From the NCBI GenBank assembly GCA_000004695.1, contig CM000152.2:5568001-5632000 (forward strand): a DNA stretch of 64,000 nt, read 5' to 3'. This DNA comes from Dictyostelium discoideum (taxonomy: Eukaryota). The position numbers and the translations under genes were made by a program. Of this stretch, positions 8,769 through 56,547 are shown piece by piece (the stretch's first letter is position 1; each line of letters starts with the position of its first letter). The notes below the pieces were generated by a model that worked only from the letters and a program-made list of their open reading frames with translations, was not told the DNA's origin and did no database searches.

Positions 8769-10232
8769 CTATATAAAGATAAGTTCTTTTACATTTGGTA
8801 AATCATTTTCTTGAATTATATGATCATATAACCGATTACAAATTGTTAATGATTTTACAGAAGGAATAATAAATGTGTCAAGTTTTTTATTAAAACTAGA
8901 ACCCAATTCTAATGATTCAACCAAAGGTATTACATTAATTGGAATATCTTGATTAAATTTATAACCTAATCTTAATTTTTTAATTGAATCCATGGATCCA
9001 ACTATTAATGGTTTATTAAATTCTGCACCAAGTTTTAAATATTTTAAATTATTAGGAAGATAACCTTTGTTAATTGATTGATTATATCTATCACCCAATA
9101 TTAATGAAGTTATTGAAGTTGATGATAGATTTGCATTTTCAAGTGGTTGATCAAAACAATAACCAAGTTCTAATGATATAATTGATTTTGGAATAGAGTA
9201 TGATTGTAACATTTGGTTAAAAATTCCTGTAATTGATAATGATGTACAAGAATTTGGTATTGAACCTTCAATTAGTGGTTTATCAAATGATACACCTAAA
9301 AATAAATCAACAACAGAGTTTGGTATTGAATTTGGTAAAAGGTTTTGATTAAAATTACTTTTAAATGTTAATTTTAATAAAGAACAAGGTAAATCACCTG
9401 GTGAAATTGGATGATTAAATTTTGAAAATGTTAAATCTGTAATGGATTGACCAAATGAATTTGCTATGATTGGTTGTGACCAACCATTTCCAAAATAAAG
9501 TGTTTTCAATTGTGATGGAAGTTGACCAATTTGAATTTGTTGATTGAAATTATTACCAAATATTAATGTAGTAATACAAGTTGCACCTAAATTTGCATTC
9601 TCTAATGATTGATTAAATGAATGACCAAAATTTAGTAATGTTAAACTTTGTGGTATTGAATATTCTACAATGGGTTGATTAAATAATAAACCAAATTCTA
9701 AAGTTTCCAATTGTTCAGGTAAGCAATCTTGTTGAATTGCTTGATTAAATATTGAAAATCTAATAGTTTTAACTGAATTTGGAATTGATCCATATGATAA
9801 CTGCTCATCATATCCTAATAAATTCAATTCTGTAATGGAGTCTGATTCAAAATATCCCTCTCTTAAATATCTCTTAAAATTTGGAAGTGATAGTTTAGTT
9901 ATTGATTTTGGTAATTTAATTGTTGACGGTTCCATATTATCCAAAATAATAATTGATTTTAAAAAATTTTTATTTTTATATTTATTTAATCTTTTTATAT
10001 CTAAAAAGGTTTTTTCATTCTCACCTATTCTTTCAATCGTACCTTTTAATAATTGATTTGAAATAATTTTTCTTAAATATTTATTTTTCCAAATTTTATT
10101 ATAAAATAATTCACCAATTTCATTATCATTTAAAATTTTAATCAATTGATTTTCTTTATTATCATTCCTAATTAATTTAAATATTAAACTATATTCTTTA
10201 ATAATTATAATTGTACGATTTCTATTATTCAT
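8769..10232 (-). CDS. FNIP-repeat protein (Dictyostelid-specific ~22-aa repeat family), single exon.
   Basis: The 487-aa ORF has about 15 tandem copies of the F-N-x-P-(I/L) repeat unit (LKFGxxFNQPIxxGxLPxSLxxL). FNIP repeats are characteristic of Dictyostelium. Confidence 0.8.
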   Translation of the reverse strand: MNNRNRTIIIIKEYSLIFKLIRNDNKENQLIKILNDNEIGELFYNKIWKNKYLRKIISNQLLKGTIERIGENEKTFLDIKRLNKYKNKNFLKSIIILDNMEPSTIKLPKSITKLSLPNFKRYLREGYFESDSITELNLLGYDEQLSYGSIPNSVKTIRFSIFNQAIQQDCLPEQLETLEFGLLFNQPIVEYSIPQSLTLLNFGHSFNQSLENANLGATCITTLIFGNNFNQQIQIGQLPSQLKTLYFGNGWSQPIIANSFGQSITDLTFSKFNHPISPGDLPCSLLKLTFKSNFNQNLLPNSIPNSVVDLFLGVSFDKPLIEGSIPNSCTSLSITGIFNQMLQSYSIPKSIISLELGYCFDQPLENANLSSTSITSLILGDRYNQSINKGYLPNNLKYLKLGAEFNKPLIVGSMDSIKKLRLGYKFNQDIPINVIPLVESLELGSSFNKKLDTFIIPSVKSLTICNRLYDHIIQENDLPNVKELIFI

Positions 10233-18894: not shown

Positions 18895-21680
18895 ATGAAT
18901 TACGAAATTGTTATGGACGAGCATCAAAGTTTGTATTAAAAAAAAAAAAAAAAACTAAAAATAATTAAATTTTTATATGTAAATATTAATATAAAAAATT
19001 CAACAGAATTCATTGATGAAAATTTAAAGAATTTCTATGGAGAGCATAAACATTTTGTAGAATGGATGGATTCAAGATCATTAGCATCAAAAAGATTTAA
19101 AAAAAGATTAATTGTTATTGGTGAATATAGAATTTTAAGTGTAAAAAAAGGAAAAGTTTCAATATCTTTAAATAAAAATATTCATTTTTATGATATAGCT
19201 GATATAATAGTCGTTGAAGATACTGTATGTATTTTTTTTTTTTCTCAAAAATATTATTATTTAAAATACTAACATATAATTATTTATTAATTTTCAAAAA
19301 AAAAAAAGATTGAAATTAGACAAAAACAAGTTATAAAAGGTGATCAAATTGGTATATTAATAAAATCAAAACAAAAAGAAAGTTTACAAATGATATTAAA
19401 ATTGTTAAGAGAAAAGATTAGAAATATTACACATGGATTTCCAAGTACTAGTCAATTGAGAATTAATGCAAATGAGAGTTATTTATTACCAATTCAAGAG
19501 AAAGTTATTGGAATAGCTGATAATTTCATAGAGACTTATAAAGCACAATCATCCTACAAAAATAATGAACCAAGTACAGAGGTGATTAGATTGGTTGAAA
19601 AGTATGTTCAAGATTGTTGTAGAGAATTTGATTTATCAAAATGTCCAGGATTTGAAGGTAAAAGTGAATTAAATTTTCAAATTGATACTGTAATTTCATC
19701 ATTAAATTATAATGGTTATTTCAATTCAATTATTATTAATGGTAATAGTTGTGGTGGTAGTACTAATATTGGTGGCAGTGGTGGTGGCAGTGGTGGTGGT
19801 AATAGTAGTATAGGAGTTAATCAAAAAGGTTTAGTTGAAAAAGTTGGTGAATTATTATCAACAAATTGTTGTGTTAGAAAAATATCAATTTTTAATTGTA
19901 AAGATGATGATCAAGTATTATCAACCATTGGTACATCGTTAATTGGTAATCAATTTAATTTATTACAAGTTATAGATTTACATAGTAACCATTTAAATCA
20001 ATCAACATTTCAAACATTTGCAGATGGTATTGAAACAATGACACATCATTCACTTAGATATTTAAATCTATCAGATTGCAACCTATCATCAAGATCAGTT
20101 GAAATATTATTTAATTCATTCTGTAAGAATAGTAAAATCTCTACATCATTAGAGTATTTAAATTTATCATACTCAAAATTCGACGAGGTTGGTAGTAGTT
20201 CATTCACAAGTTGGTTAGCAAAGATCAAAGATGATAATGTATTAAAGTTTTTATATTTAACCAATTGTAATTTAAATTTAATTGTGATTGGAGCACAACT
20301 TAGAAATTTACCTTTGCTACGTGTATTGGATATTTCTAATAATAGATTAGAGAGAACTGAAATTGAAGAGTTAATTGCATTCATAAAGAATTCAAGGGCA
20401 TTGGAATCATTGAATATTTCAAATTGTTCACTTAATCATGACTATTTCCTCTACATTTGTAATACACTAAATAAGAATGAATATATTAAACATTTAGATT
20501 TAAATGTATCACATAATCAAATTTCAAAGTCGCCAAGTATCTTTGTTAGCGCATTGGAGTTTCTTACTATGGTGAATTCGTTAAATTTATCTCATATTCC
20601 CATTACTTATAAAACTTTGATTAGAGTTGTTGATTCAATTAGAATCTATTGTAAAAATATTAGAGAATTGATATTGGATGCTTGTTTCTCCCATTCAAAT
20701 GATAAATCTCATGATGGTATTGATTTCATTAATGAGTTGAAACAATTCCTTAGAGAGAGAGAATCATTGAAATCTTTATCTATAGGTGGTGACAATTCAA
20801 ACTACTTATCACCAAAATTGGTTATACCATTAATTGAATATTTAACCAACGAAAATGGTACATTGGAGCAATTGAATATTCAACACTCCCATCTTGGTGA
20901 TTCAGTTATGCCCTATATTGCTAATTTATTAGAACGTAATTCAACTTTGAAATCTTTATCATTGGATAGAAATTATTTCACTATTAATTCCTTCCAAACT
21001 CTATTGCTATCATTACAAAATAATCATACACTTTTAAATATACCTTTCCCATCATATGATTTTGAAAAAATTTTAATTACATTACCAACAGCTCAAAAGA
21101 AATCATTATTATTTAATTTACTTTATAGAATTCAATCAATTTTAGAAGAAAATGGTGGTTGGAGAATACCTGATCCTCATTTTTATCCTGTACCAACTTC
21201 ATTAACTACTGGTAATAATACTAGTGGTGGTTCAAATTTACAATTATTAGGTGGTGGTAGTGGTGGTAGTGGTAGTAATAGTGGTGGTTCTAATTTACAA
21301 TTACAACAACGTCCATCTTCACCAACTAGTAGTTCAAGTGGTAGTGGTTATAGAAGTAAAAGCCCAACACCTGTAACAACTTCATATGGTTCTTCTGCAT
21401 ATTCACAACAACATTATGATAATTTATCATTACCACCTCCACCTGTTGATAATTATTATAACAATAACTATTATCAAAATGAAAGTGAAGGTGGTGATGA
21501 TGATTATTATAATCATCAACAACAATCATCCCAACAAAAATATCAAAATAGAGCAACATTAAGTCCAACAAATAGAAATCAACAACAACAACAATACCAA
21601 AATAGAAATCAAAGAATTGAATTAACTGATAGTTTTGTTGAAGCTGTTGATCATTTAAATGATGAAGAAAATCTTGATTG

Positions 21681-21681
<1 letters not shown>
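18895..21681 (+). CDS. Leucine-rich-repeat protein with an N-terminal PH-like domain, CARMIL-like. 3 exons, approx 18895..18928, 19007..19224, 19309..21681. Ser/Gly/Pro/Gln-rich C-terminal tail.
   Basis: The exons encode MNYEIVMDEHQ / KFIDENLKNFYGEHKHF...KRLIVIGEYRILSVKKGKVSISLNKNIHFYDIADIIVVEDT / IEIRQKQVIKGDQIGIL.... This is followed by >10 RI-type LRRs (LRYLNLSDCNLSSRSVEILFNSF..., LRVLDISNNRLERTEIEELIAFIKNSRALESLNISNCSL). It resembles the CARMIL N-terminus (RILVLSPHRVFLL...). No CP-binding motif was seen, so the CARMIL assignment is tentative. Confidence 0.6.
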
Positions 21682-34003: not shown

Positions 34004-35090
34004 GTGGGTGTTGCTAAAGTTATTCATATTATTGTTCCTGTATTGATTATTCATATTGTTGCTCTGACAGATATTGTTGTTCATATTCGGATTATTATTG
34101 TTATTCATATTATTGTTATTGTTCATATTCATGTTAGTGTTACAATTGTTAGAGTTCATATTGTTATTATTATTATTATTTTAAATGTTATTATTATTAT
34201 TATTATTATTAAGTTGGTTATTAAATAAGTGATCTATATGTTGAATTTGATTATTTTCGTTTCCTATAGTCATTGTATGATAGTTGTTATTGTTACAAAG
34301 ATTATTGTTCATTGGATTATTAAAATCATTNNNNNNNNNNNNNNNNNNNNNNNNNNNNNNNNNNNNNNNNNNNNNNNNNNNNNNNNNNNNNNNNNNNNNN
34401 NNNNNNNNNNNNNNNNNNNNNNNNNNNNNNTATTCATACTATTATTATTCATATTATTATTCATATTATTATTATTATTATTCATATTATTCATATTCAT
34501 ATTATTATTATTATTCATATTATTATTCATACTATTATTATTATTATTCATATTATTATTATTCATACTATTATTATTATTATTCATACTATTATTATTA
34601 TTATTCATGTTATTATTCATACTATTATTACTGTTATTATTATTATTATAATTTAAAGGTGAAGAATTTAAAGAAGAAGGTGAAGACTGATTAGTTTTAT
34701 TAATATTAGTACCAGAATTTACGGAAGAGACAAATTTAAAAATATCTTGAAGGGAAGAAGACTTTTCTAGAGAGAACAAGTTGTAGATCTTGTTAAAGCT
34801 ATAAAAATAATGTGTATGCTTAAGTGTTTGCATCAAGGAGGCCATATTGGGATCACCAATAGTAAAAAACAAACGCTCCATTGAATCTAATAATCTATTT
34901 GCGTCATCGATTGAAAATGGACGTTGATGAGCCCAGGAATTTCTAAAATTATATATTTCATGTAAAAGATTTCTCAATTGAATAAAATCATCTGAAAAGA
35001 AAGAATTCAACATATATTTGTGGAAAAATTGAATAATACAAGATAAATCCCAACTTTCAAAATTTAAAATATTATTACTGTTATTGTTAC

Positions 35091-35181
<91 letters not shown>

Positions 35182-35475
35182 GTTATTATTATTATTGCCA
35201 TTTGATTTTGTCCTATTCTGTATTATAGTTTGTTGATTTATAATTTGTTTTTTTAAATCTTTTATCATATCACTGGTTATTGAAAAATCTTCTTTCGAAG
35301 AGGAAACGAAACCCATATCTAGGTCATTTTCATTTATAACAAATTTAGAATCTGAGCCGATACAATCTGATAGTTTAGAAATTAAAAAATCTCTACATAA
35401 ACTTAAAGATTTGCCTACAATAAGTTGGTTTGAACCAATTCCAAACTCGTCTAAATTATTTAATGTCAACTCCAT
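33674..35475 (-). CDS. Asn/Met-rich protein with a conserved central domain carrying an HEPN-like Rx4-6H (RNxxAH) motif. The gene spans the 100-N assembly gap, and an in-frame TAA at ~34183 near the gap separates two co-framed ORF segments.
   Basis: MELTLNNLDEFGIGSNQLIVGKSLSLCRDFLISKL...(N)n...ESWDLSCIIQFFHKYMLNSFFSDDFIQLRNLLHEIYNFRNSWAHQRPFSIDDANRLLDSMERLFFTIGD.... Poly-N/M continues on both sides of the gap. Downstream, NDFNNPMNNNL...[14 protein letters not shown]... runs in one frame. Confidence 0.5.
34331..34430. other. Assembly gap (100 N).
   Basis: Run of exactly 100 n characters inside an (AAT/ATT)n-rich coding region. The conventional gap length makes frame continuity across it meaningless. 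Confidence 0.99.
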
Positions 35476-35521
35476 TTCTATATTTTCGATTTTATTTATT
35501 TGTTTATTTGTTTATTATTAT

Positions 35522-35555
<34 letters not shown>

Positions 35556-35573
35556 TGTACAATAACTTTAGAG

Positions 35574-35604
<31 letters not shown>

Positions 35605-36393
35605 AATAATAAAATTTAATAAAATTTAATGAAACTTAATGATATTAATTATTTTTCTTAAAAATATAACCTTAACTCTCTTTTTTTTTTTTTGTTTTTT
35701 TTGTTTTTTATTTTCCTTCTAAACTCTCCTCTTAAAAAAATAAAAAAAATCTTAAATGAAGCTTATTAAATAACTTATTAAATAATATAGGTATATACTT
35801 ATTTTATTATATTAAGTGTATATACATGTATTATTATTATTGTTGTTATTAATAATAATATTATCACAATAATTGTTATTAAATAAAAAGAGTGTGGTTT
35901 TTTTTTTTTTTTTTTAATATGTAAAGAATTCCCTATTAAATTTCTTTTTTTTAATTTTATTGAAATATGAAAAAAAAAATCAATATTGGGTAGAAATAAA
36001 TAAATTGTTTCCTAAATGAATCTCTTACAATATATATTTTTTTTTCTTTACTTTTATTTATAAAATAAACTATTTTTTTTTTTTATATTTAAATATATTA
36101 GTGTACACCAATTATTGAATGAAAACAAACGGTTTGTCTATATGTTAACAAAATTGAAAAAAAAAAAAAAGAAAAAAAAAATTATATTTTTTTTAAAAAA
36201 AAAAAAAAAATTAAAAATAATTAAAAAATAACTTGCGGGTGAAAAAAATAATTAAAATAAAATAAAAAATAAAATTTAAAAAAAAAAAGTGCAACAAAAC
36301 CCAAAACAGATTTTTTTTTTTTTTTTTTTTTTTTTGCGTTTGGAAAGAATATATAAATATTTTTTTATTTTTTCCTATTAAGTTTTTATTTAA

Positions 36394-36612
36394 TTAGTAT
36401 GGAGTAAATCTTTTTTTTTGAAAATTTCCATTATTTAAGGAGTTCGGATAATTAAAATATAATTGTTGGGGTTGAAGTTGTTGTTGTTGCTGTAAAAGTT
36501 GTAAATATGTATTATCCATTGGTAAATTTCCATTAAAGTTATTAAAATTATTATTGGTATTATTATTTAAATAATTTAAAAATTGTTGTTGTAATAATTG
36601 TTTTTGTTGTTG

Positions 36613-36654
<42 letters not shown>

Positions 36655-38049
36655 TAGTTGGTTATAATGTACACTTGAGTTTTTATAATGTTGGGGAATA
36701 TGAGGATTAAAAGATGTACTTCCAAATAGATTCCCATTATTTATATTATTTAAATTATTAAAACTATTATTTAAATTATTCAAATTATTTTTTTGATTAT
36801 TGGAAATTCTTTGTAATTTTCTTTGAATCTTATCGGATCTTAATTTTTTATCTATTGGTTTTGCAAAACTTAATGACAAAACCTTACCATTTATATTTAT
36901 TGGTTTTTCTTCATGTATTCTTAAAATTTCTTCGGCCAATTCTCTAGTTTTTAAATGAACAAAAGCATAATCTCTTTTTGAATTATTTAAACTATTATTA
37001 TTATTATTAATATTATTATTATTTAAATTATTATTTAAATTATTAATAATTTCTAATGTTGGAGCACCTTGAGGTATTATTATTTTTTCGATTATATCAT
37101 CTTTGTTATTGTTATTATTATTTAAAAGTGATAAAGAATTTTCTTGAATTATATCATTAATTATTTTTGTAATTGATAGGTCGTTTCTATGATTTAATGG
37201 TAAATTTCTAATATAAATTGCTTTAATTTCTTTATTTTCCAATGGATCATTTTGAGGATCTAAAGTTGTAGGATCAGGATCTGACCAATTCACAGTGAGA
37301 GTAGTAATATAATCACCCAATTTTACAGTTGAAGCTGTTAAAATTCTACGAGCAGTATCGGCTAAATAATGATCTTGATATTCGATGAAAGCAAAACCTC
37401 TATTTTTATTTGGTTGGTCTGGTGACATTAAGAAATCGATTGATTCAATACCTTCAGTTTTTTCATTAAATATTGAAATGAATTGTTCCTTTGATAGATC
37501 TTTTGGTAAATTACCAATGAATAGTTTACGTTTGTTCTCGGATTGTTTAACTTCAATGATTTTACCTTTAATCGATTTACCATTTAATTTATCAATAACA
37601 TTTCTACACATTGATCTATCATTAAAAAGAACGAAACCAAATCCTTTACTCTCACCAGTTAATTTATCTTTCATTAATCTAATTTCCAATACATTATTAT
37701 CACTATTTTCATTGAAAATTTCTAATAACTCTTCTTCATTAACAGTTTTATTTACACCACCAAAAAATATTTCATTATTTGCATTTCTTTGACTTTTACT
37801 AATACTATTATTATTATTATTGATTGAAATGTTATTATCACCATCTTTAATTAAAGTACTTGTTGATGGTAATTTTTTATTTTTAGATTCTGGTGATCCA
37901 TTTGTTGAAATGGAAGTTGAAGTTGATTTTATATCATCATTTAATAAATTCTCTTCAATTAAATTATTATTACTAATTAATGACGAAGTTGGTGAACGAT
38001 CTGATGATGATAAAACACTTTCTTCATCACTCTGTGTATAAAAACCCAT
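36394..38049 (-). CDS. hnRNP R/Q (SYNCRIP/A1CF)-family RNA-binding protein with three RRMs and Asn/Gln-rich tails. A possible extra 5' mini-exon lies at ~38338..38306 (MPSSTSSTDSI|GTATGT) splicing to acacag at ~38031.
   Basis: RRM1: IFFGGVNKTVNEEELLEIF...KGFGFVLFNDRSMCRNVI. RRM2: KLFIGNLPKDLSKEQF...NRGFAFIEYQDHYLADTARRIL....LTVNWSDPD, which is diagnostic of the hnRNP R/Q/ACF subfamily (NRGFCFLEYEDHKTAAQARRRL...VEWADP). RRM3: AIYIRNLP...RDYAFVHLKTRELAEEIL. Confidence 0.8.
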
Positions 38050-38729
38050 ATATTTTAAAATTTTTATAATTATTGATACAAATAAAAATACAATTTAAAA
38101 TTAATAACATATAAATAAATTTAAAAAATATATAATAATATATATTTATTTTTAAAAAATTAGTTATTAAATAATAAAAAAAAAAAAAAAAAAAATTTCC
38201 AACACTTTTTTTATTTTTTTATTTTTTTAAGATAATTAAATTTTAAATTTTTTAAGAAATATTATTTTTTTTTTTTTATATTTAAGTGAAAATTATTATA
38301 GAAACATACAATTGAGTCGGTTGAAGATGTAGAGGATGGCATTTTTTTGGAATAGTTTTAAAATTCCAATAAATGAATTAACTTGAATATTTGGGATGAT
38401 TTGTAAATTTAAAAATAATAAAAACAATAATAATAATCTAGTATGGTGAATTATAATAATAATAAAAAAATATATATTTATATTTATATAAATAAAAAGA
38501 TAATTATTGTAAAAAAAAAAAAAAAGATTTTATTAAAAAAAAAAAATATTCCTTAAATTAATTTTTTTTTTTTTTTTTAAATTGACACACATTACGTGGA
38601 TTTTTTAAAACATCTTAAAATGGTGTTATTATATTATAATTCACTTCATTGTTTTTTTACCACTTAAAAGTTATCGTGTATTTTGTTTTTACCATTTTAG
38701 TTAAATTGAAAAACATAATTATACACAAA

Positions 38730-38768
<39 letters not shown>

Positions 38769-39243
38769 ACTAATTCGTGAAAATACCACACAATAGTTTT
38801 TTTTTTTTTAACAAAAAAACGAATTTATTTCCTTTTTTGAAATTTCTTTTACCCCCAAAAAAATAAAAAAATAAAATAAAATAAAATAAAATAAAATAAA
38901 ATAAAATCCCCCAATGATATAATTGATTTTCGCAATTCAAGTTTACGCATATGTGGGAATTCAAATTTTGAAATTAGTCAAAAAAAAAAAAAAAAAAAAC
39001 TAACTTTGTAAAAGATGGTCATGATGGTATATAAAAAAAAATAAAAAAAAAAAAAAAAAAAAAAATTAATAATTAATAATTAAAATTTGACACTTAAATA
39101 TACATAAAATGATTTTGAGTTCTCTATTTTATTTACTAAATTCATATTAAAAAAAAATAAAATTAAATGATTATTAAAAAAAAATAAAAAAAAATATTAT
39201 TTTTTTTTTTTTTTGTTTTATTTATTTTTTTTTGGTGGGGAAT

Positions 39244-41652
39244 TTAATGTTTAATATCAAGTTCATTTTCACTTTTTATTTGTATACCCAATTCATTTGC
39301 TTTATTTAATTTTGCAATTGCAGGTTTTTCACCAATTAATAGAATTTGAGTAAAAGAATTTATTGATGATTGAACTTTTGCATTAAATTTTCTTTGAATA
39401 AAATCTTTTACAAAATCTCTATCACCCAATTTAAATTTACCAGTAATTACAATATATTTATTTGATAAAAAACTATTATTATTTTCATTATTATTATTAT
39501 TATTATTATTACCAATTTCTTCATTATTATCATTATTGTTATTATGAGTTAATTTTAAATTATTTGATTTAAATTTAAAAATTAAATAATCTAAATATTG
39601 TTTTTCAAATTGATCTAATGGGTTAAAGAAATTAAAGATTGATTCAGAAGTTTGTCTACCAAGACCAGATTGTAATTCAATTGATTCGATTGATGGTGAA
39701 TTAATTAGATTATCCAGAGATTGAAATTTCTCAGAGAGGATCTTTGAATTTGAGCTTCCAATACCAGGTATACCTATAGCACAGAGTAGTGAAGCTAAAC
39801 CACGTGATTTACTATCCTCAATTGATTCTAATAAATTATTAACTTTTGTATGACTAAAACCTTTCAATGATAATAGTTTTTCCTTAAATTGATAAAGTTC
39901 ATACAAGTCACCGAAATCTTCAATTAATTGATTCTCTAATAATACTTGAATTTGACTTTTACCAACACCTTGAATATTCATTGCTTTCTTATCAACAAAC
40001 CATGAAATTTGTTGAACTAATTGATTTGGACAATTTTCAGCAACACAAAAATAATCAACATATCCAACTCTATTAACTAATTCACTTTTTAAATTACATG
40101 GACATAATATATTACCATTTTCATTACATTTAAATAATGATTCAATATTATTGGTATTATTGGTATTGGTATTGGTATTGGTATTATTGATATTATCATC
40201 AAGGTTAGTAATTATTTTTGGAATTACATCACCAGCACGTTCAATTAAAACTTTTGAACCAATTTTAATATTTAATTTATTGATGTATGAGAGATTATTT
40301 AAAGTTGCACGAGAAATGGTAACACCATGAACTTGAATTGGTTCAACCAATGCAACTGGTGTAATTCTACCACTTTTACCAACTTGTAAAACTATATCTT
40401 TTATTGTTGAAATTTCACTCTTTGCTCCAAATTTATATGCAAAAGCCCATCTTGGTGATCTATTAATGTCTCCTAATATTCTTTGAATATTTATATCATT
40501 CACTTTTATAACTATACCATCAATATCCCAATTATGATTCTCTCTTTTTTTAAGTTCCCATTCTTTTATAAATTCTTCAATATTTTTTATATCATTATTA
40601 TTACCACCACCACCAGTAGATAAAGTTACAACTGTATTTGAACCATTATCAATTTGAAATCCCATTTTTTCAAAAAGTTTTAAATTCTTTGATTGTGTAT
40701 TACAACGTTCATCATCAATTATCATTTCATTGTCATTTTCCTTTTCATTATCATTTTCATTTTCATTTTCACCATTATTAATATTATTATTGTTATTATT
40801 AGTTGGTATAAAAAAGTATGGAAAGAAATCAAATTTCATTTGTTCATTTAATAATAATATTGGTTCAATATTTAATGAATCATTAGCATCTTCTTCAATT
40901 GATTTCCTTAGAATACCAGATACAATATTTCTTGTATTTTTATATTGATGTTGATCATTATTATCAAGTTTTAATTTATTTATAATTTTTAAATATGATT
41001 TATTTAAAACAACCTCACCTCTAATTTCAAAATCTTTATATTTCTAATTAAAAAAAAAAAAAGGAATTAATATTAAATAATAATAATAATAATAATTACT
41101 AATATTAGAAATAAAATAAATACGGTTAAATTTGAAGGTAAAGTTAATAAATTTTTAAGTGATGGAATAAATTGTAATGCATTTGTTGTGATATCTTCAC
41201 CAATTTCACCATTACCTCTTGTTAAAACTCTTTTTAATTTATTATTTTCATAAACTAAACTTATACCAATACCATCATATTTCAATTCTAAAGAGTATTC
41301 AATTTGTTGTTGTGGTTGTTGTTGTTGTGATGTTTGTTTTTTTAATAGAAATTTCTCAATTTTATTTTTGAATGCAATTATATCATCTTTTGAATAAGTA
41401 TTTTGTAATGATAACATTCTTGATTTATGTCTGAATTTTAATCCTCTATTATTACTATAATCACTAATTGGTGCTCCAACTTGATTAGTAATAGTTTGTT
41501 GATTAAATTTCTTTTCTAAAATTTCTAATCTTTTAAATAATTTATCATATTCGAAATCTGATATTTCACTTTTAGATTTATTATAATATAAATCATTATA
41601 TCTATTAATTTTATTTCTTAATTCTTCAATTTCAATTATTTCATTATTATTA

Positions 41653-41690
<38 letters not shown>

Positions 41691-41734
41691 GTTTATAGTT
41701 GATGTAGTAGTAGTAAATTTACTACTTTTTAATA

Positions 41735-41771
<37 letters not shown>

Positions 41772-41831
41772 ATTACTATTTTTAAAATTTAAAAATAAAG
41801 TCTTTAAATATTTTGATTGTTGCCTAAACAT
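39244..41831 (-). CDS. NAD+-dependent DNA ligase, bacterial LigA-type, full domain set Ia-NTase-OB-ZnF-HhH-BRCT. 2 exons, approx 41831..41124, 41043..39244 (835 aa). N-terminus resembles an organellar presequence.
   Basis: Ia: EISDFEYDKLFKRLEILEKKFNQQTITNQVGAP (cf. E. coli ISDAEYDRLMRELRELE...PTQRVGA). NTase: LELKYDGIGISLVYENNKLKRVLTRGNGEIGEDITTN (KxDG adenylation lysine). Across the intron: EIRGEVVLNKSYL...NTRNIVSGILRK. OB: PRWAFAYKFGAKSEISTIKDIVLQVGKSGRITPVALVEPIQVHGVTISRATLNNLSYINKLNIKIGSKVLIERAGDVIPKI. Zn finger: CPCNLKSELVNRVGYVDYFCVAENCPNQ. HhH: GVGKSQIQ, IPGIGSSNS. C-terminal BRCT. Poly-Asn insertions are typical of Dictyostelium. Start MFRQQSKYLKTLFLNFK. Confidence 0.85.
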
Positions 41832-41951
41832 GATGAAACAACTTTTTTATTTTTTTATTTTTTTTTATTTTTTTTATTTTTTGGAAATAAACGAACTTTG
41901 GTTATTTTCCAATCTTATTCAATTTTTTTTTTTTTTTTGAAATTTTGATTT

Positions 41952-42011
<60 letters not shown>

Positions 42012-42060
42012 AAATTTGTTAAAAACTTAATAAAAGGAACCACAGACTTTAAATAAATAA

Positions 42061-42232
42061 AAATACAAATATGACAAGTATGTTTTTAAAAAAATTTATT
42101 AGTATTCAATAAAAAGAAAATGATGATTAAATAAAATAAAATAAAACAAAATAAAATAAAACAAAATAAAATAAAATATAAATTTAAAAAAAAAAAATCA
42201 TTTTGTGAAAATAATAAAATATTAAATTAAAT

Positions 42233-42273
<41 letters not shown>

Positions 42274-42561
42274 CTAACAATTTGAATATATTTATCTATT
42301 TAATTATTAATATTTTTCTATATAGGAGGTAATCAAAGAGAAATTGATAGAAAAAGAGCAGAAGCTAGATCAAAGAAAGGACCACAAAAGGGACAAGGTG
42401 ATTCTTTACAAAGAAAAGAAAAAGATTTACAAGAAATTCAAAAGAAACAACAAATATTTGAAGAGAAGAAAGCAAAGGAAGCAGAAGATGCAAGACTTGC
42501 AAAAATTGCAGAAATTGAAGCAAAGAAAGCTGCTCAACAATTAAAAGGTGCTCAAATTTAA
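42061..42561 (+). CDS. SERF/4F5-family small EDRK-rich protein. 2 exons, approx 42061..42067 (ATGACAA) and 42326..42561.
   Basis: Spliced product MTRGNQREIDRKRAEARSKKGPQKGQGDSLQRKEKDLQEIQKKQQIFEEKKAKEAEDARLAKIAEIEAKKAAQQLKGAQI* matches the SERF N-terminal signature M(T/A)RGNQRE(L/I)(A/D)R. Donor GTATGT directly after a 7-nt first exon, acceptor ctatatag. The ORF-track frame (42344..42544) is an overlapping alternative frame. Confidence 0.7.
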
Positions 42562-42804
42562 ATCACCACCCTCTCAAAATATAATAATAATAATAATATG
42601 CATATTCCCCAATCATATCATATATACACTCTCCTGTTTTTTCTTTTTAATTTTTAAAAAAAAAAGGATGTAAATAAATAAAAAAAAAAAATAAAAAACA
42701 AATAATTTGTAATACTTAATCATTTAATAAATTTTATTTTATTACTTTTTTTTTTAATATAAAAAATATTAATTATTTATTTTATTATTTTATTTATTTA
42801 TTAT

Positions 42805-43967
42805 TTAATTTGTTGATGATAATGAAGCGGCATGTTTATCTTCCCAATATTGAATTCTTTTTGAACTAATTCTATGTTTTATTACATATTTAATAAAGAT
42901 ATCTTCATCAATTTCAAATGTTTCAAATGATCTTAAAATATTATAACATTTTTCAAAACTATCTTTATTTGCTAAAATTGATTCTTTAAAAAAAAAAAAA
43001 AAAAAAAAAAGGTCAGGATTTTGTTGTGTGTGTTTAGAATATGATATTATTTTTAATTTTTAACTTACTTTCATTTAATCTAAATAAAGCCATTGCAATT
43101 GAATAAACTATTGTATAACCTTCAGAGAAGATTAAATCCCAAACACGCAAGGAGATATGAAATGGGAAAGAATCTAAGAAACCAATTAGGAACCATTTTG
43201 TTGAATAAAGGGTGGTTGTTAAGTTAATATTATCTAAAGCATTTTTAGCAGCGGGGAAATAATGATTTAAAAGATTTTCAAAAACGAATGACATTCTTAT
43301 TAGACCTGGTAAACCTGATAAAAACATTGATCTCATTGAATATTCTGGTCTAGACATTAAAGATTGTAAAGTCCAAAAAGCATCTTCCTCTGATAGATAC
43401 ATCACTAATAAAGAAGCGATCGAACTCATACCTTGAGTATAGCCAACACCTTGGTCGTATAGTGAATAAACTTTCAAGACATTGAATAATGATACTTGAC
43501 CCATACCATAACGTTCTCTAAAAAATATATGATTTCTATAAGCTCTATTAACATCCAAATCTATATAAATCTCATTTGCAGAATGTTGATTCACCAATTG
43601 ATTGAATAAACCTGGATTCCTGGATTTCTCTTCTTGAGCATGTGATAACAATGGCCAAACCTCTGATCTCATTCTATCGGGTATACCTTTAATAGATCTA
43701 GATTTAAATTTACCTGTAAACTTGTGATTCAAATTATATCTCTTTATCATTGCATTCCATTTAATTGATCTTTCCAATTCTTTTTCAATCTCTTTTTTAT
43801 TCTTTAAAACACTTATATTTGATGTTAATCCACTATTAATAGTTGATCTTCTTGTATATTTTCTAGGTACTGGTGCAATTGGTGGTGATGGTGGTTCATT
43901 ATTAATTTCTTCATTTGTATTATTATTTGTATTATTATTTGTATTATTATTACTTGTATTATTATTT

Positions 43968-44004
<37 letters not shown>

Positions 44005-45253
44005 CATTTGAATTATTATAACCATACTGAATATTACCAAAACGATCTAATTTATTTAAAATTTTAATATCTTTATAATCTGAATAATCTTGTATTGATT
44101 GACGATAGGTATGATTATGTCTATTTAATGGTTTATAATGATATCTAAGGGAGATATCAGCACCATTTTGAGTTAGAGTTGTTGCTATATCATCATAGCC
44201 ACCATCCATTGCTAAATGAAGTGCTGTTTTTTGCTTTTTATCAATTTCATTAACTTTACAACCTTTTAATACTAATAATCTTGAACATTCAGTTTTACCA
44301 TTTGCACTTGATAGTATAATTGGTGTTCTTTCCAATGAATCCTTTTGATTCACATCAACATTATAATCCAATAATAAATTTAAAATTGTTGAATCACCGT
44401 TTCTAATTACTAAATGAATTGGACTTTCAATTTTTGTTGATTTTTTATAATATTCTAATAATTCATCAATTTCATTATTTGAATTATTTAAATTATTATT
44501 ATTATTATTATTACTACCACTACCACTACCACTACCACTACTACTAGTTGTAGTATTTTCATCTATATTTTCATTTAATGTTACAGTTTTATTTGGATCA
44601 GCTCCATATTTTAATAATAATAATACTATATCATTAAAACAATCAGATTCAATTGAAGTATATAATAAAGTTTTACCAGTTGATTCAATTGTTTTATTTA
44701 AAATTTCTTTAAAATTAAAATATTTATTATTTTCTTTAATTTCTTTCTCTCTTTCTAAATAAAGATTTAAATTTTCTTGAGAATATCTTATGGATTTTTT
44801 TTGTTGTGGTTGTTTCTTTTTTTCTATTTTCTCATCATCTTCATCATCTTCATCATCTTCCTTGTCATCATCTTTTATTATTTTTTCATTTTTTAAACCA
44901 GATAAATTCTCTAAATATTGACTTAATAAATTTGAATTATTTTCTTTAATTATTGATAAAATCTTATCAAATATTTCGTCCTTATTATCTTTTATTGCTG
45001 TTGAATTGTTTAAATATTTTTCTACTCCCTCGTTAATTTGTTGTTGTTGTATAATTGTTGGTTGCGGTATATTTTCGATTTCTACATTTATAGTTTCATT
45101 TGTTGTTATTGTATTGGTGGTTGTGGTTGTTGTATTATTATTATTTGTATTTTCCTTTATCTCCTTTTCTTCTTTTTCAATAATTATATTATTGTTGTCA
45201 TTACTAATATCTTGTGGTAAAGTTTGAGACTTTGTCTCTTCACTTGGATCCAT
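42805..45253 (-). CDS. TBC-domain Rab GTPase-activating protein with N-terminal ankyrin repeats. 2 exons, approx 45253..43069, 42983..42805.
   Basis: ANK: LLLKYGADPNKT..., SPIHLVIRNGDSTILNLLLDYNVDVNQKD, TALHLAMDGGYDDIATTLTQNGADI. TBC: IPDRMRSEVWPLL...IYIDLDVNRAYRNH (Arg finger IxxDxxR)...VGYTQGMSSIASLLV (YxQ Gln finger)...LRVWDLIFSEG. GTAAGT donor after ...LNESK. The last exon encodes KSILANKDSFEKCYNILRSF.... Confidence 0.8.
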
Positions 45254-45800
45254 AATTTACTATTATAGTAATAATAAAAATAATGGTGGTGTTAAAATAA
45301 TAAAAATAAAAATTTAAAAAAAATTAAAAATTTAGATTTTTTTTTTTTTTTTTTTTTTTTCAAAATAAAAATAAAAATAAAAATAAAAAAACAATACTCA
45401 ACGGTAAAAGCGCGGAATTAAAATAATAAACAATTATTTTTTTTTTTTTATATATATTTTTTTTTTTATTATTTCATTTTACAACAAGCCTCGTGCTCAC
45501 TTTTGTAATATTTTAAAATCTTAAGATTTAAAAAAAAATAATAATAAAAAAAAAAAAAATAAAAAAAAATAAAATATTTTAATAAAGATCTAATTATAGA
45601 TTCAAATTTTCGGTATCCTTTTATCTATAATAATCATATATTAATTGACTTTTTATCTATTTATTTTTCCATTTTATTTTATTTTATTTTATTTTTTTAA
45701 TTATTTTATATTGGTTTATTTTTATTTTTTTTTTTTTTTTTTTTTTTTATATTTTTTTTTTAATATATATCTAAGGTGTGCCTAATTTTATTTTTATTTT

Positions 45801-45834
<34 letters not shown>

Positions 45835-45857
45835 TATTTTAATTCCAGGATTTCCAT

Positions 45858-48404
<2,547 letters not shown>

Positions 48405-55103: not shown

Positions 55104-56547
55104 AAAATAGAAATAAAAAAAAAAATAAAAATATTTTTACTAATTTTTTTTAAATTAATTATATCTTTTTTTTTTTTTATTTTTAGGATTTTTATGTGAT
55201 GCATATGATTTATTTGTAATTAATTTAGTATTAGTTATATTACAAAAACTTTATAAAGAATCAAGTGGTGATTCATCGATGGTATCCACTGGTGCATTAT
55301 GGGGAGCAGTTGGTGGTCAAATTGTTTTTGGATTTTTAGCAGATAGAATTGGTAGAAAGATAGGGTTTATTATAACGTTATCATTTATTATTGTTGGGGC
55401 ATTTGCAAGTGCAGTTTCATTTGACAAGGCAGCATTGAATATTTTTGGTATGTTGACATTGTGGAGAACCATTTTGGGTTTCGGTATTGGTGGTGAGTAT
55501 CCATTGTCGGCCACAATCTCCAGTGAGAGTAGTAGCAGTGATAGAAAGCGTGGTTCTCAAGTGGCCTCAGTGTTTAGTATGCAAGGTTTGGGTATAATTC
55601 TATCGCCAGTGGTTGTTATAGTGCTCTTGAAAATCTGTGGTTCAAATCATATTGATTTAGTGTGGAGATTGGCATTGGGGTTCGGCGGCATACCAGGTTT
55701 GGTGATGATTTACTTTAGAATTAAAATGAAAGAGACTAAAAGCTTTTCAAATAAAGCAAAGATTCAAAAGAAACAAATGTTTTTATCAATTATGAAATAT
55801 TGGAAGACTTTAGCGGGTACTGCCGGTGGTTGGTTCATTTTCGATATCACATTCTATGCTAATGGTCTTTTCAATGGCACTATTGTGTCTTTGATTGGTT
55901 TCGATGATGCTAGCAATACTTATGATGAGATTTGGAATACAACTTTGGTTTCACTCTATCTTGCACTCATTGGTTTGCCAGGCTATTTCGTTGGTATCGC
56001 ATTGATTGACCGTTTGGGAAGAAAGAAGTTACAAATGTTGGGTTTCGCTCTACTAGGTATAACCTATATGGTGATGGGTATAAGTTATGATCATATCGTA
56101 AAGATTAAAGCTTTGTTCATTGTACTCTATGGTTTAACTTTCTTTTTCGGTAATGCTGGTCCAAATACTACAACTTTTGTATTGCCTTCAGAATCTTTCC
56201 CAACTAAAATTCGTGCAACTTGTCATGGTTTATCTGCTGCTGCCGGTAAAATTGGTGCTGTAATCGGTGGTGCAACAATCAAACCTTTATTTACAAACTA
56301 TGGATTAGGTAAAACTTTAATCGTTTGTGGTGCTATTGCTTTCGTTGGTTTAATTCTTACCTTTTTAATAGTTGAAGAAACAATGGGTAAACCAATCATT
56401 GAAGATGAAGATATTCAATTAGATAATATCTCTGATGATCCATCTTTACGTGAATCAACTGGTAGTTCAAGTTCTGGTGTTGAGGATAATATTGATAATA
56501 ATAATAATAATAATAATACTATTACAAATCCAATTGAAAGTAATTAA
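54573..56547 (+). CDS. Inorganic phosphate:H+ symporter of the major facilitator superfamily (PHO84-like). 2 exons, approx 54573..55044, 55187..56547. Long Asn-rich cytosolic N-terminus.
   Basis: Exon 2 begins GFLCDAYDLFVINLVLVILQKLY...GALWGAVGGQIVFGFLADRIGRK...TLWRTILGFGIGGEYPLSATISSE...RGSQVASVFSMQGLGI (PHO84 motifs GGDYPLS, TSE). About 12 predicted TM segments. Donor GTAAGA, acceptor ttttag. Confidence 0.85.

Follow-up and report, generated by a model that had tools for sequence, protein, structure and literature searches.

The 64,000-nucleotide window of Dictyostelium discoideum DNA analysed here (GenBank assembly GCA_000004695.1, contig CM000152.2, positions 5,568,001 to 5,632,000) carries on its minus strand, at 39244-41831, a gene for a DNA ligase. 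Judged from profile matches, domain order and conserved residues, the product is a bacterial-type ligase dependent on nicotinamide adenine dinucleotide (NAD+), LigA (EC 6.5.1.2), with the full architecture and intact catalytic residues. We consider it likely that this nuclear-encoded LigA is mitochondrial, that it acts in replication and repair of mitochondrial DNA (mtDNA) and that it descends from one old horizontal transfer from a bacterium.

The 835-amino-acid spliced product scores 506.1 bits (1.4e-151) against TIGR00575, the equivalog model for full-length LigA, for which the curated cutoff is 444.45, and 495.3 against PRK07956, with a cutoff of 369. An earlier note, made from the sequence alone, had described a complete LigA with its hallmark modules in order, and the above-cutoff TIGR00575 match, the order of the Pfam domains, the conserved residues and the fold all bear this out. 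The Pfam comparison that it proposed succeeded in part. DNA_ligase_aden (9.5e-52), DNA_ligase_OB (PF03120, 2.9e-26), HHH_2 (7.4e-9) and BRCT (6.1e-6) were found, whereas the Nlig-Ia match was weak (3.7e-4, 21.5 bits, under the 27-bit cutoff) and the zinc-finger model PF03119 had no match in the product, because the first cysteine pair is C-P-C and not CxxC. The gene and its parts are placed in the window as follows.

39244..41831, minus strand: whole LigA gene, ATG to stop, 835-amino-acid product (Q1ZXG5 / KAM9950550.1)
41124..41831, minus strand: exon 1, codons 1-236, 708 nt, with the ATG at 41831
41044..41123, minus strand: phase-0 intron, 80 nt, GTATTT...AATTAG, 7.5% GC
41094..41099, minus strand: alternative donor GTAATT of the AX4 RefSeq model, giving a 56-nt intron, an added VFILFLIL and 843 amino acids
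39244..41043, minus strand: exon 2, codons 237-835 plus the stop (39244-39246), 1800 nt including the stop
41643..41831, minus strand: N-terminal extension relative to bacterial LigA, residues 1-63, candidate mitochondrial presequence
41442..41642, minus strand: domain Ia, residues ~64-130, with the nicotinamide mononucleotide (NMN)-binding residues Y82, Y83, D92, Y95 and D96
40417..41441, minus strand: nucleotidyltransferase (NTase, adenylation) domain, residues ~131-445, interrupted by the intron and by two low-complexity inserts
41280..41282, minus strand: codon of K184, the KxDG lysine and predicted adenylylation site, from the E. coli alignment
40186..40416, minus strand: OB-fold domain, residues ~446-522, from Pfam and the structure model
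40030..40104, minus strand: Cys4 zinc finger, C550-P-C552...C569-x4-C574, from the E. coli alignment
39616..39984, minus strand: helix-hairpin-helix (HhH) domain, residues ~590-712, from Pfam and the structure model
39259..39477, minus strand: BRCT domain, residues ~759-831, from Pfam, PDB profile matches and the structure model

Alignment with E. coli LigA places the residues expected of the enzyme in each module. In domain Ia the NMN-binding Y22, D32, Y35 and D36 are conserved as Y82, D92, Y95 and D96; H23 is replaced by Y83, a tyrosine also present in one bacterial LigA of that alignment (P0037). The KxDG motif reads E182-L-K184-Y-D186-G187, corresponding to E113, K115, D117 and G118, and the remaining key residues of the NTase domain, R205, E246, R274, R282, R403, D411, G412, K416 and K440, match R136, E173, R200, R208, R277, D285, G286, K290 and K314. 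R505, V509 and I510 of the OB domain are conserved, with R333 and T334 of E. coli changed to K459 and S460. C550, C552, C569 and C574 align with C408, C411, C426 and C432, and metal binding by these cysteines is a prediction only.

The closest solved structures by profile comparison are likewise full-length LigAs (1v9p, 1.8e-76; 2owo, 1e-68). An AlphaFold2 model built on a 50-sequence alignment has a mean pLDDT of 78.7; its low-pLDDT stretches are the N-terminal extension and the asparagine-rich inserts, and confident helical and alpha/beta segments lie at 575-729 and 766-827. The best Foldseek matches of this model are full-length LigAs, among them the DNA-bound E. coli enzyme 2owo (E 4.4e-47, TMt 0.68) and 4glx (7.1e-46), whereas ATP-dependent ligases reach only ~1e-6, some forty orders of magnitude less.

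The two halves of the protein are encoded in different frames. The unspliced first open reading frame (ORF), 41831..41073, terminates within an AT-rich segment, and the second half continues in another frame (41831-41043 = 788 = 2 mod 3), and the two halves can therefore be joined only by removing 41123-41044. The junction predicted at 41124/41043 is exact, exon 1 ending at 41124 and exon 2 beginning at 41043, and the GTATTT...AATTAG intron and the poly-Asn insertions noted beforehand are both present in the gene model, with further low-complexity inserts. The resulting product is 100% identical to KAM9950550.1 from a recent D. discoideum assembly and 99% identical to the AX4 protein XP_001134548.1 (UniProt Q1ZXG5), for which RefSeq and UniProt place the donor 24 nt downstream of GTATTT and so insert VFILFLIL. 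In the D. firmibasis orthologue, which is 80% identical, a 69-nt intron interrupts the gene at the identical codon boundary, SNLT|KYKDF. Because this intron and the newer D. discoideum annotation agree, we favour the 835-amino-acid model, and the AX4 RefSeq donor is probably wrong.

An intron-containing gene of this kind is native to the amoeba. The protein family has a bacterial affinity, which is the one point in favour of a bacterial contaminant or an assembly artefact; everything else speaks against such an origin. The DNA is native-looking at 20-22% GC (the coding sequence 21.9%, the 64-kb window 20.3%), and the GC content of the gene resembles that of its flanking genes. Two D. discoideum assemblies place it on chromosome-scale contigs (6.36 and 6.43 Mb), and peptides of its product have been quantified in D. 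discoideum AX2. In the window, genes for a leishmanolysin-family peptidase and a RabGAP/ankyrin protein lie on one side of it and genes for an RRM protein and a Swt1-like HEPN protein on the other, and the order leishmanolysin-like peptidase, RabGAP/ankyrin, LigA, RRM, Swt1-like HEPN across 34309-48404 is kept in D. firmibasis (L001). The required spliceosomal intron and ordinary Dictyostelium neighbours in synteny with D. firmibasis therefore exclude contamination, as the earlier note had argued from the intron, the poly-Asn insertions and the AT-biased codons; we give the contaminant explanation a negligible probability and regard it as already refuted. A scan of the locus for bacterial promoters and terminators was uninformative (43 sites where 39 were expected, and no terminators).

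LigA of the Dictyostelium type occurs in at least D. discoideum, D. firmibasis, Tieghemostelium lacteum, Physarum polycephalum (as a transcript) and Planoprotostelium fungivorum, and in two environmental sequences, one of them dictyostelid-like. All of the named species belong to Evosea. This list is a lower bound, as the Dictyostelium proteins themselves were absent among the matches listed by the profile search with the amoebozoan alignment. The P. fungivorum orthologue (L169 3001-6409), mapped by an exact k-mer chain, has 13 exons and 12 introns. In the alignment, one of these introns lies no more than one residue from that of Dictyostelium, and a T. lacteum intron no more than two; for P. 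fungivorum such a match would arise by chance about 8% of the time, given 12 introns in 729 codons, and is suggestive only.

Two of these orthologues have peculiarities of their own. The T. lacteum entry KYR02698.1 (L002 6001-7330), 1100 amino acids long, joins an upstream Uma2/PF05685 ORF to LigA across a 216-nt "intron" and is probably two genes merged; an in-frame ATG (MIHIKNIHYVIYNR...) inside this "intron" 2 was used as the LigA start when extensions were compared. Physarum LigA (P0126) is 1077 amino acids long. Its presequence-like N-terminus is followed by a Lys/Pro/Glu-rich linker of ~130 residues (KPEKPEKPKAEKAPKPPKPE), and its adenylation domain carries a long acidic insert.

The seven eukaryote-type sequences were placed in neighbor-joining (NJ) trees with 186 non-redundant bacterial and viral LigAs (193 sequences in all), including Bacteroidota, Acidobacteriota, Chloroflexota, Bacillota, Fusobacterium, E. 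coli, Tistrella and viral contigs from IMG/VR. They formed one clade in 194-200 of 200 bootstraps with amino acids and in 177 of 200 after Dayhoff-6 recoding, a result that held whether the zinc-finger columns and the viruses were included or left out. We conclude that the eukaryotic LigAs are a single clade among bacterial sequences, in native genomic context, as would be the case for an acquired bacterial gene. The phylogenetic comparison with bacterial and viral LigA proposed in the earlier note thus yields one eukaryotic clade but no resolved sister group.

The zinc finger gives a hint of the donor. Among 383 sequences, the pattern C-x-C...C-x4-C was confined to the eukaryotic proteins and a single set of bacterial LigAs, mostly unnamed metagenome proteins, the named members being Candidatus Kapaibacterium, Kapabacteria, Ignavibacteria and one "Chloroflexota" metagenome-assembled genome. 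Over the stretch CPCNLKSELV, D. discoideum and Kapaibacterium (P0124) agree letter for letter. Outside the finger, this CxC group is on average the closest to each of the five eukaryotic proteins (mean identity 35-44%) and shares three exclusive signature columns with the eukaryotes, against 0-1 for other groups. Among hidden Markov models (HMMs) of three narrow groups, that of the CxC group scored highest for all seven eukaryote-type sequences. The margins are small in all three comparisons. Per-group HMM scores depend on how diverse a group is, broad groups giving divergent queries higher scores, and only these three groups were comparable. A Kapabacteria/Ignavibacteria-like member of the Bacteroidota may be the donor; it is the best candidate and a weak one, and we offer it as the leading hypothesis rather than as a result.

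Evidence on location comes from the D. discoideum mitochondrial compendium of Freitas et al. (bioRxiv 10.1101/2021.11.08.467494; iScience 2022). Its Table S2 reports relative enrichment ratios (RERs) for Q1ZXG5 of 0.839 for crude mitochondria and, after Percoll purification, 0.804 (adjusted p 0.011). The mean of 47 core tricarboxylic acid (TCA) cycle and respiratory proteins is 1 on this scale, with the mitochondrial cutoff at 0.343. In Table S6 the protein is entered under "Proteomics; DNA ligase (NAD(+)); DNA related processes", with homologues in D. purpureum and Rickettsia prowazekii and none in yeast or human; the main text makes no mention of the ligase. Of the proteins above the cutoff that were tested with green fluorescent protein (GFP), 90% were mitochondrial.

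The N-terminus is a candidate mitochondrial presequence. Residues 1-63, missing from bacterial LigA, contain 8 Lys/Arg and poly-Asn, with the first acidic residue at 64 and a predicted helix at residues 2-17. In all five eukaryotic orthologues the N-terminus is extended, its first 30 residues including 0-1 acidic and 3-6 basic ones, and MLRRF|SS of P. fungivorum aligns with KRYF|SS of T. lacteum, both resembling an Arg-3 processing site. These features agree with mitochondrial import and do not prove it.

We suggest the following sequence of events for a mitochondrial LigA. The acid-free, basic extension of ~60 residues would direct import into mitochondria, where NAD+ would be bound between domain Ia and the NTase domain. 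K184 would then attack NAD+ to form ligase-AMP with release of NMN, the AMP would be passed to the 5′-phosphate of an mtDNA nick encircled by the OB, zinc-finger and HhH domains, and the 3′-OH would seal the nick. Drawing on the mitochondrial NAD+ pool, the ligase would serve both mtDNA replication, at lagging-strand and primer-removal nicks, and repair. The gene itself would have entered the ancestor of Evosea amoebae from a bacterium in one old horizontal transfer.

Several observations tell against parts of this account, and we set them together here. NAD+ dependence and nick sealing are predicted from residue conservation. In HhH motif 2 (window 39790-39810), R487 and G489 of the E. coli enzyme are replaced by G631 and S633. 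P. fungivorum LigA lacks the first cysteine pair of the zinc finger, which is probably degenerate in that species. D. discoideum also has an orthologue of ligase III (Yutin and Koonin 2009), the mitochondrial ligase of animals, and LigA therefore need not be the only or the main mitochondrial ligase. TargetP-2.0, as published in the compendium, classes Q1ZXG5 as "OTHER", and the false discovery rate of the proteomics classifier is estimated at 7%. The trees are NJ trees only, with one alphaproteobacterium (Tistrella) and no identified giant virus in the set. In these trees the sister group of the eukaryotic clade stays without support: the clade that includes the CxC bacteria takes this position in 36-41% of replicates, rising to 56-68% once viruses are removed, and in the best NJ tree the eukaryotes attach to long-branched LigAs of jumbo phages.

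We take R487 and G489 to be important in the E. coli enzyme. The R-x-G of HhH motif 2 reads G-F-S in Dictyostelium, G-W-K in Planoprotostelium and R-W-E in Physarum, and Kapabacteria retain R-W-G. These differences may mean that contacts with DNA have loosened or changed in the eukaryotic clade.

The earlier note had proposed organellar targeting from the N-terminus, and the outcome is divided: the protein is enriched in purified mitochondria, but the published TargetP-2.0 call finds no mitochondrial peptide. That call would suit a genuine LigA that is mainly nuclear or cytosolic, for example in BRCT-based repair, with the mitochondrial enrichment partial or an artefact; so would the classifier's error rate and the roughly 10% of GFP-tested proteins above the cutoff that were non-mitochondrial. 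Set against this, the enrichment reaches 80% of the level of core TCA and respiratory-chain proteins, far over the 0.343 cutoff, and hardly changes on purification (pure/crude ratio 0.958), and presequence-like extensions are found in all orthologues. In the available part of the compendium, most above-cutoff proteins are also called "OTHER" by TargetP-2.0. We consider a mainly nuclear or cytosolic LigA improbable and favour a mitochondrial one.

The attachment to phages bears on a second alternative, that the gene was captured from a virus, either a giant virus of amoebae or a phage of ingested bacteria. LigA is encoded by giant viruses of amoebae, and IMG/VR viral LigAs are nearest to the eukaryotes in the best NJ tree, in 26-33% of amino-acid bootstraps and in 58% after Dayhoff-6 recoding. 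The attracting sequences, however, vary by replicate (L059, L071/75/79, L033, L038), and their mean distance to bacteria is 1.05-1.23, compared with 0.75-0.88 for the tested bacteria. They retain CxxC fingers. The four whose neighbours were scanned, L059, L071, L075 and L079, adjoin endolysin, tail-fibre and SbcC-like nuclease genes and phage-only PHROGs, and they therefore belong to bacteriophages and not to giant viruses. The pattern is what long-branch attraction yields, and a jumbo-phage sister group was rejected on this ground, the partner changing between replicates and having the longest branches. In the published maximum-likelihood tree, moreover, an "unequivocally supported" clade close to gammaproteobacteria and a phage unites the giant-virus NAD-ligases, and D. 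discoideum is listed separately (Yutin and Koonin 2009). We consider viral capture an unlikely source, relying for giant viruses on that published tree.

Endosymbiotic gene transfer, in which LigA would come from the alphaproteobacterial ancestor of mitochondria and be kept only in some Amoebozoa, would fit a mitochondrial protein and the Rickettsia prowazekii homologue given in the compendium, and the deep order of bacterial LigAs is not settled by NJ trees. Tistrella LigA, however, is 31-39% identical to the eukaryotic proteins, no closer than E. coli and below the 35-44% mean of the CxC group; it never stands beside the eukaryotic clade in the trees, and its finger is of the ordinary CxxC kind. 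The scheme would also require many independent losses, because NAD-ligases are only sporadic in eukaryotes (Yutin and Koonin 2009). We give endosymbiotic descent a low probability and retain horizontal transfer from a bacterium as the preferred origin.

A stronger proposal would make LigA the main ligase of mtDNA replication across Evosea, gained once from a Kapabacteria/Ignavibacteria-like bacterium with the CxC finger as its mark. We regard this as possible and rather doubtful. If it held, maintenance of the mitochondrial genome in these amoebae would be NAD+-dependent and sensitive to antibacterial LigA inhibitors. The earlier note's remark that the enzyme is of a potential selective drug-target type is speculative.

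Much of this was already public. UniProt names Q1ZXG5 "DNA ligase (NAD(+))", NCBI names XP_001134548.1 "BRCT domain-containing protein", and the D. discoideum protein already stood for eukaryotes in the maximum-likelihood phylogeny of NAD-dependent ligases published by Yutin and Koonin (2009). The searchable literature holds no enzymology or genetics on this Dictyostelium LigA, full-text searches found no paper naming Q1ZXG5, XP_001134548 or EAS66865, and searches for LigA with Amoebozoa or Dictyostelium returned the papers of Yutin and Koonin and otherwise unrelated work. With the gene, its annotation, its inclusion in a phylogeny and its mitochondrial detection on record, the identification of a LigA in Dictyostelium is correct and is not new. 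The addition made here is modest: support for the 835-amino-acid model, a single clade across Evosea and a hint of the donor in the shared CxC finger.

Elsewhere in the window, other large ORFs encode an FNIP-repeat protein (8769-10232, minus strand), a leucine-rich-repeat protein (19390-21681, plus strand) and a major facilitator superfamily sugar transporter (55279-56547, plus strand). ARAGORN found no tRNA genes in the whole window. Homopolymer runs of A and T, ~60 and ~45 nt, lie at 41940-42010 and 42240-42275, in the intergenic DNA upstream of the LigA start; long A/T runs are typical of Dictyostelium intergenic DNA.

According to reviews, eukaryotes lack NAD+-dependent ligases, and this absence is given as the rationale for antibacterial LigA inhibitors. 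A tractable model eukaryote with a LigA, and an apparently mitochondrial one, contradicts this common textbook statement. Dictyostelium offers a ready system for asking how a bacterial replication enzyme becomes integrated into an organelle, whether an NAD+ ligase and an ATP ligase (ligase III) can share or divide mitochondrial work, and whether LigA inhibitors hit amoebae off-target.

Compared with E. coli LigA (2owo, 5tt5) and other bacterial replicative ligases, the Dictyostelium protein has the same six modules and the same catalytic and NMN-binding residues, and its model superposes on theirs. It is only ~31% identical to the E. coli enzyme, however, and differs in its spliced nuclear gene, its extension of ~63 residues and its Asn-rich inserts; the E. 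coli protein has a CxxC finger and works in the bacterial cytoplasm, whereas the Dictyostelium protein has a CxC finger and is found in mitochondria. The rare CPC...C-x4-C finger is common to Dictyostelium and the LigAs of Kapabacteria and Ignavibacteria (P0124, L096, L099), which are otherwise ordinary bacterial enzymes with no N-terminal extension and whose sister relation to the eukaryotes is without support in NJ trees. The ligases of Mimivirus, entomopoxviruses and iridoviruses resemble the Dictyostelium enzyme in being bacterial-type LigAs inside a eukaryotic cell, but they form their own clade near gammaproteobacteria and phage, separate from Dictyostelium (Yutin and Koonin 2009). LigN of Haloferax volcanii (PMC1684257) is also of the LigA type and was horizontally acquired outside Bacteria; there the recipient is an archaeon, with no introns and no organelle. 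The nearest functional parallels are animal mitochondrial DNA ligase III and the organellar LIG1 of plants and red algae, imported nuclear-encoded enzymes with the same presumed job of sealing nicks in organellar DNA. Those ligases are ATP-dependent and of eukaryotic/archaeal type, whereas Dictyostelium LigA appears to be an NAD+-type enzyme of bacterial descent.

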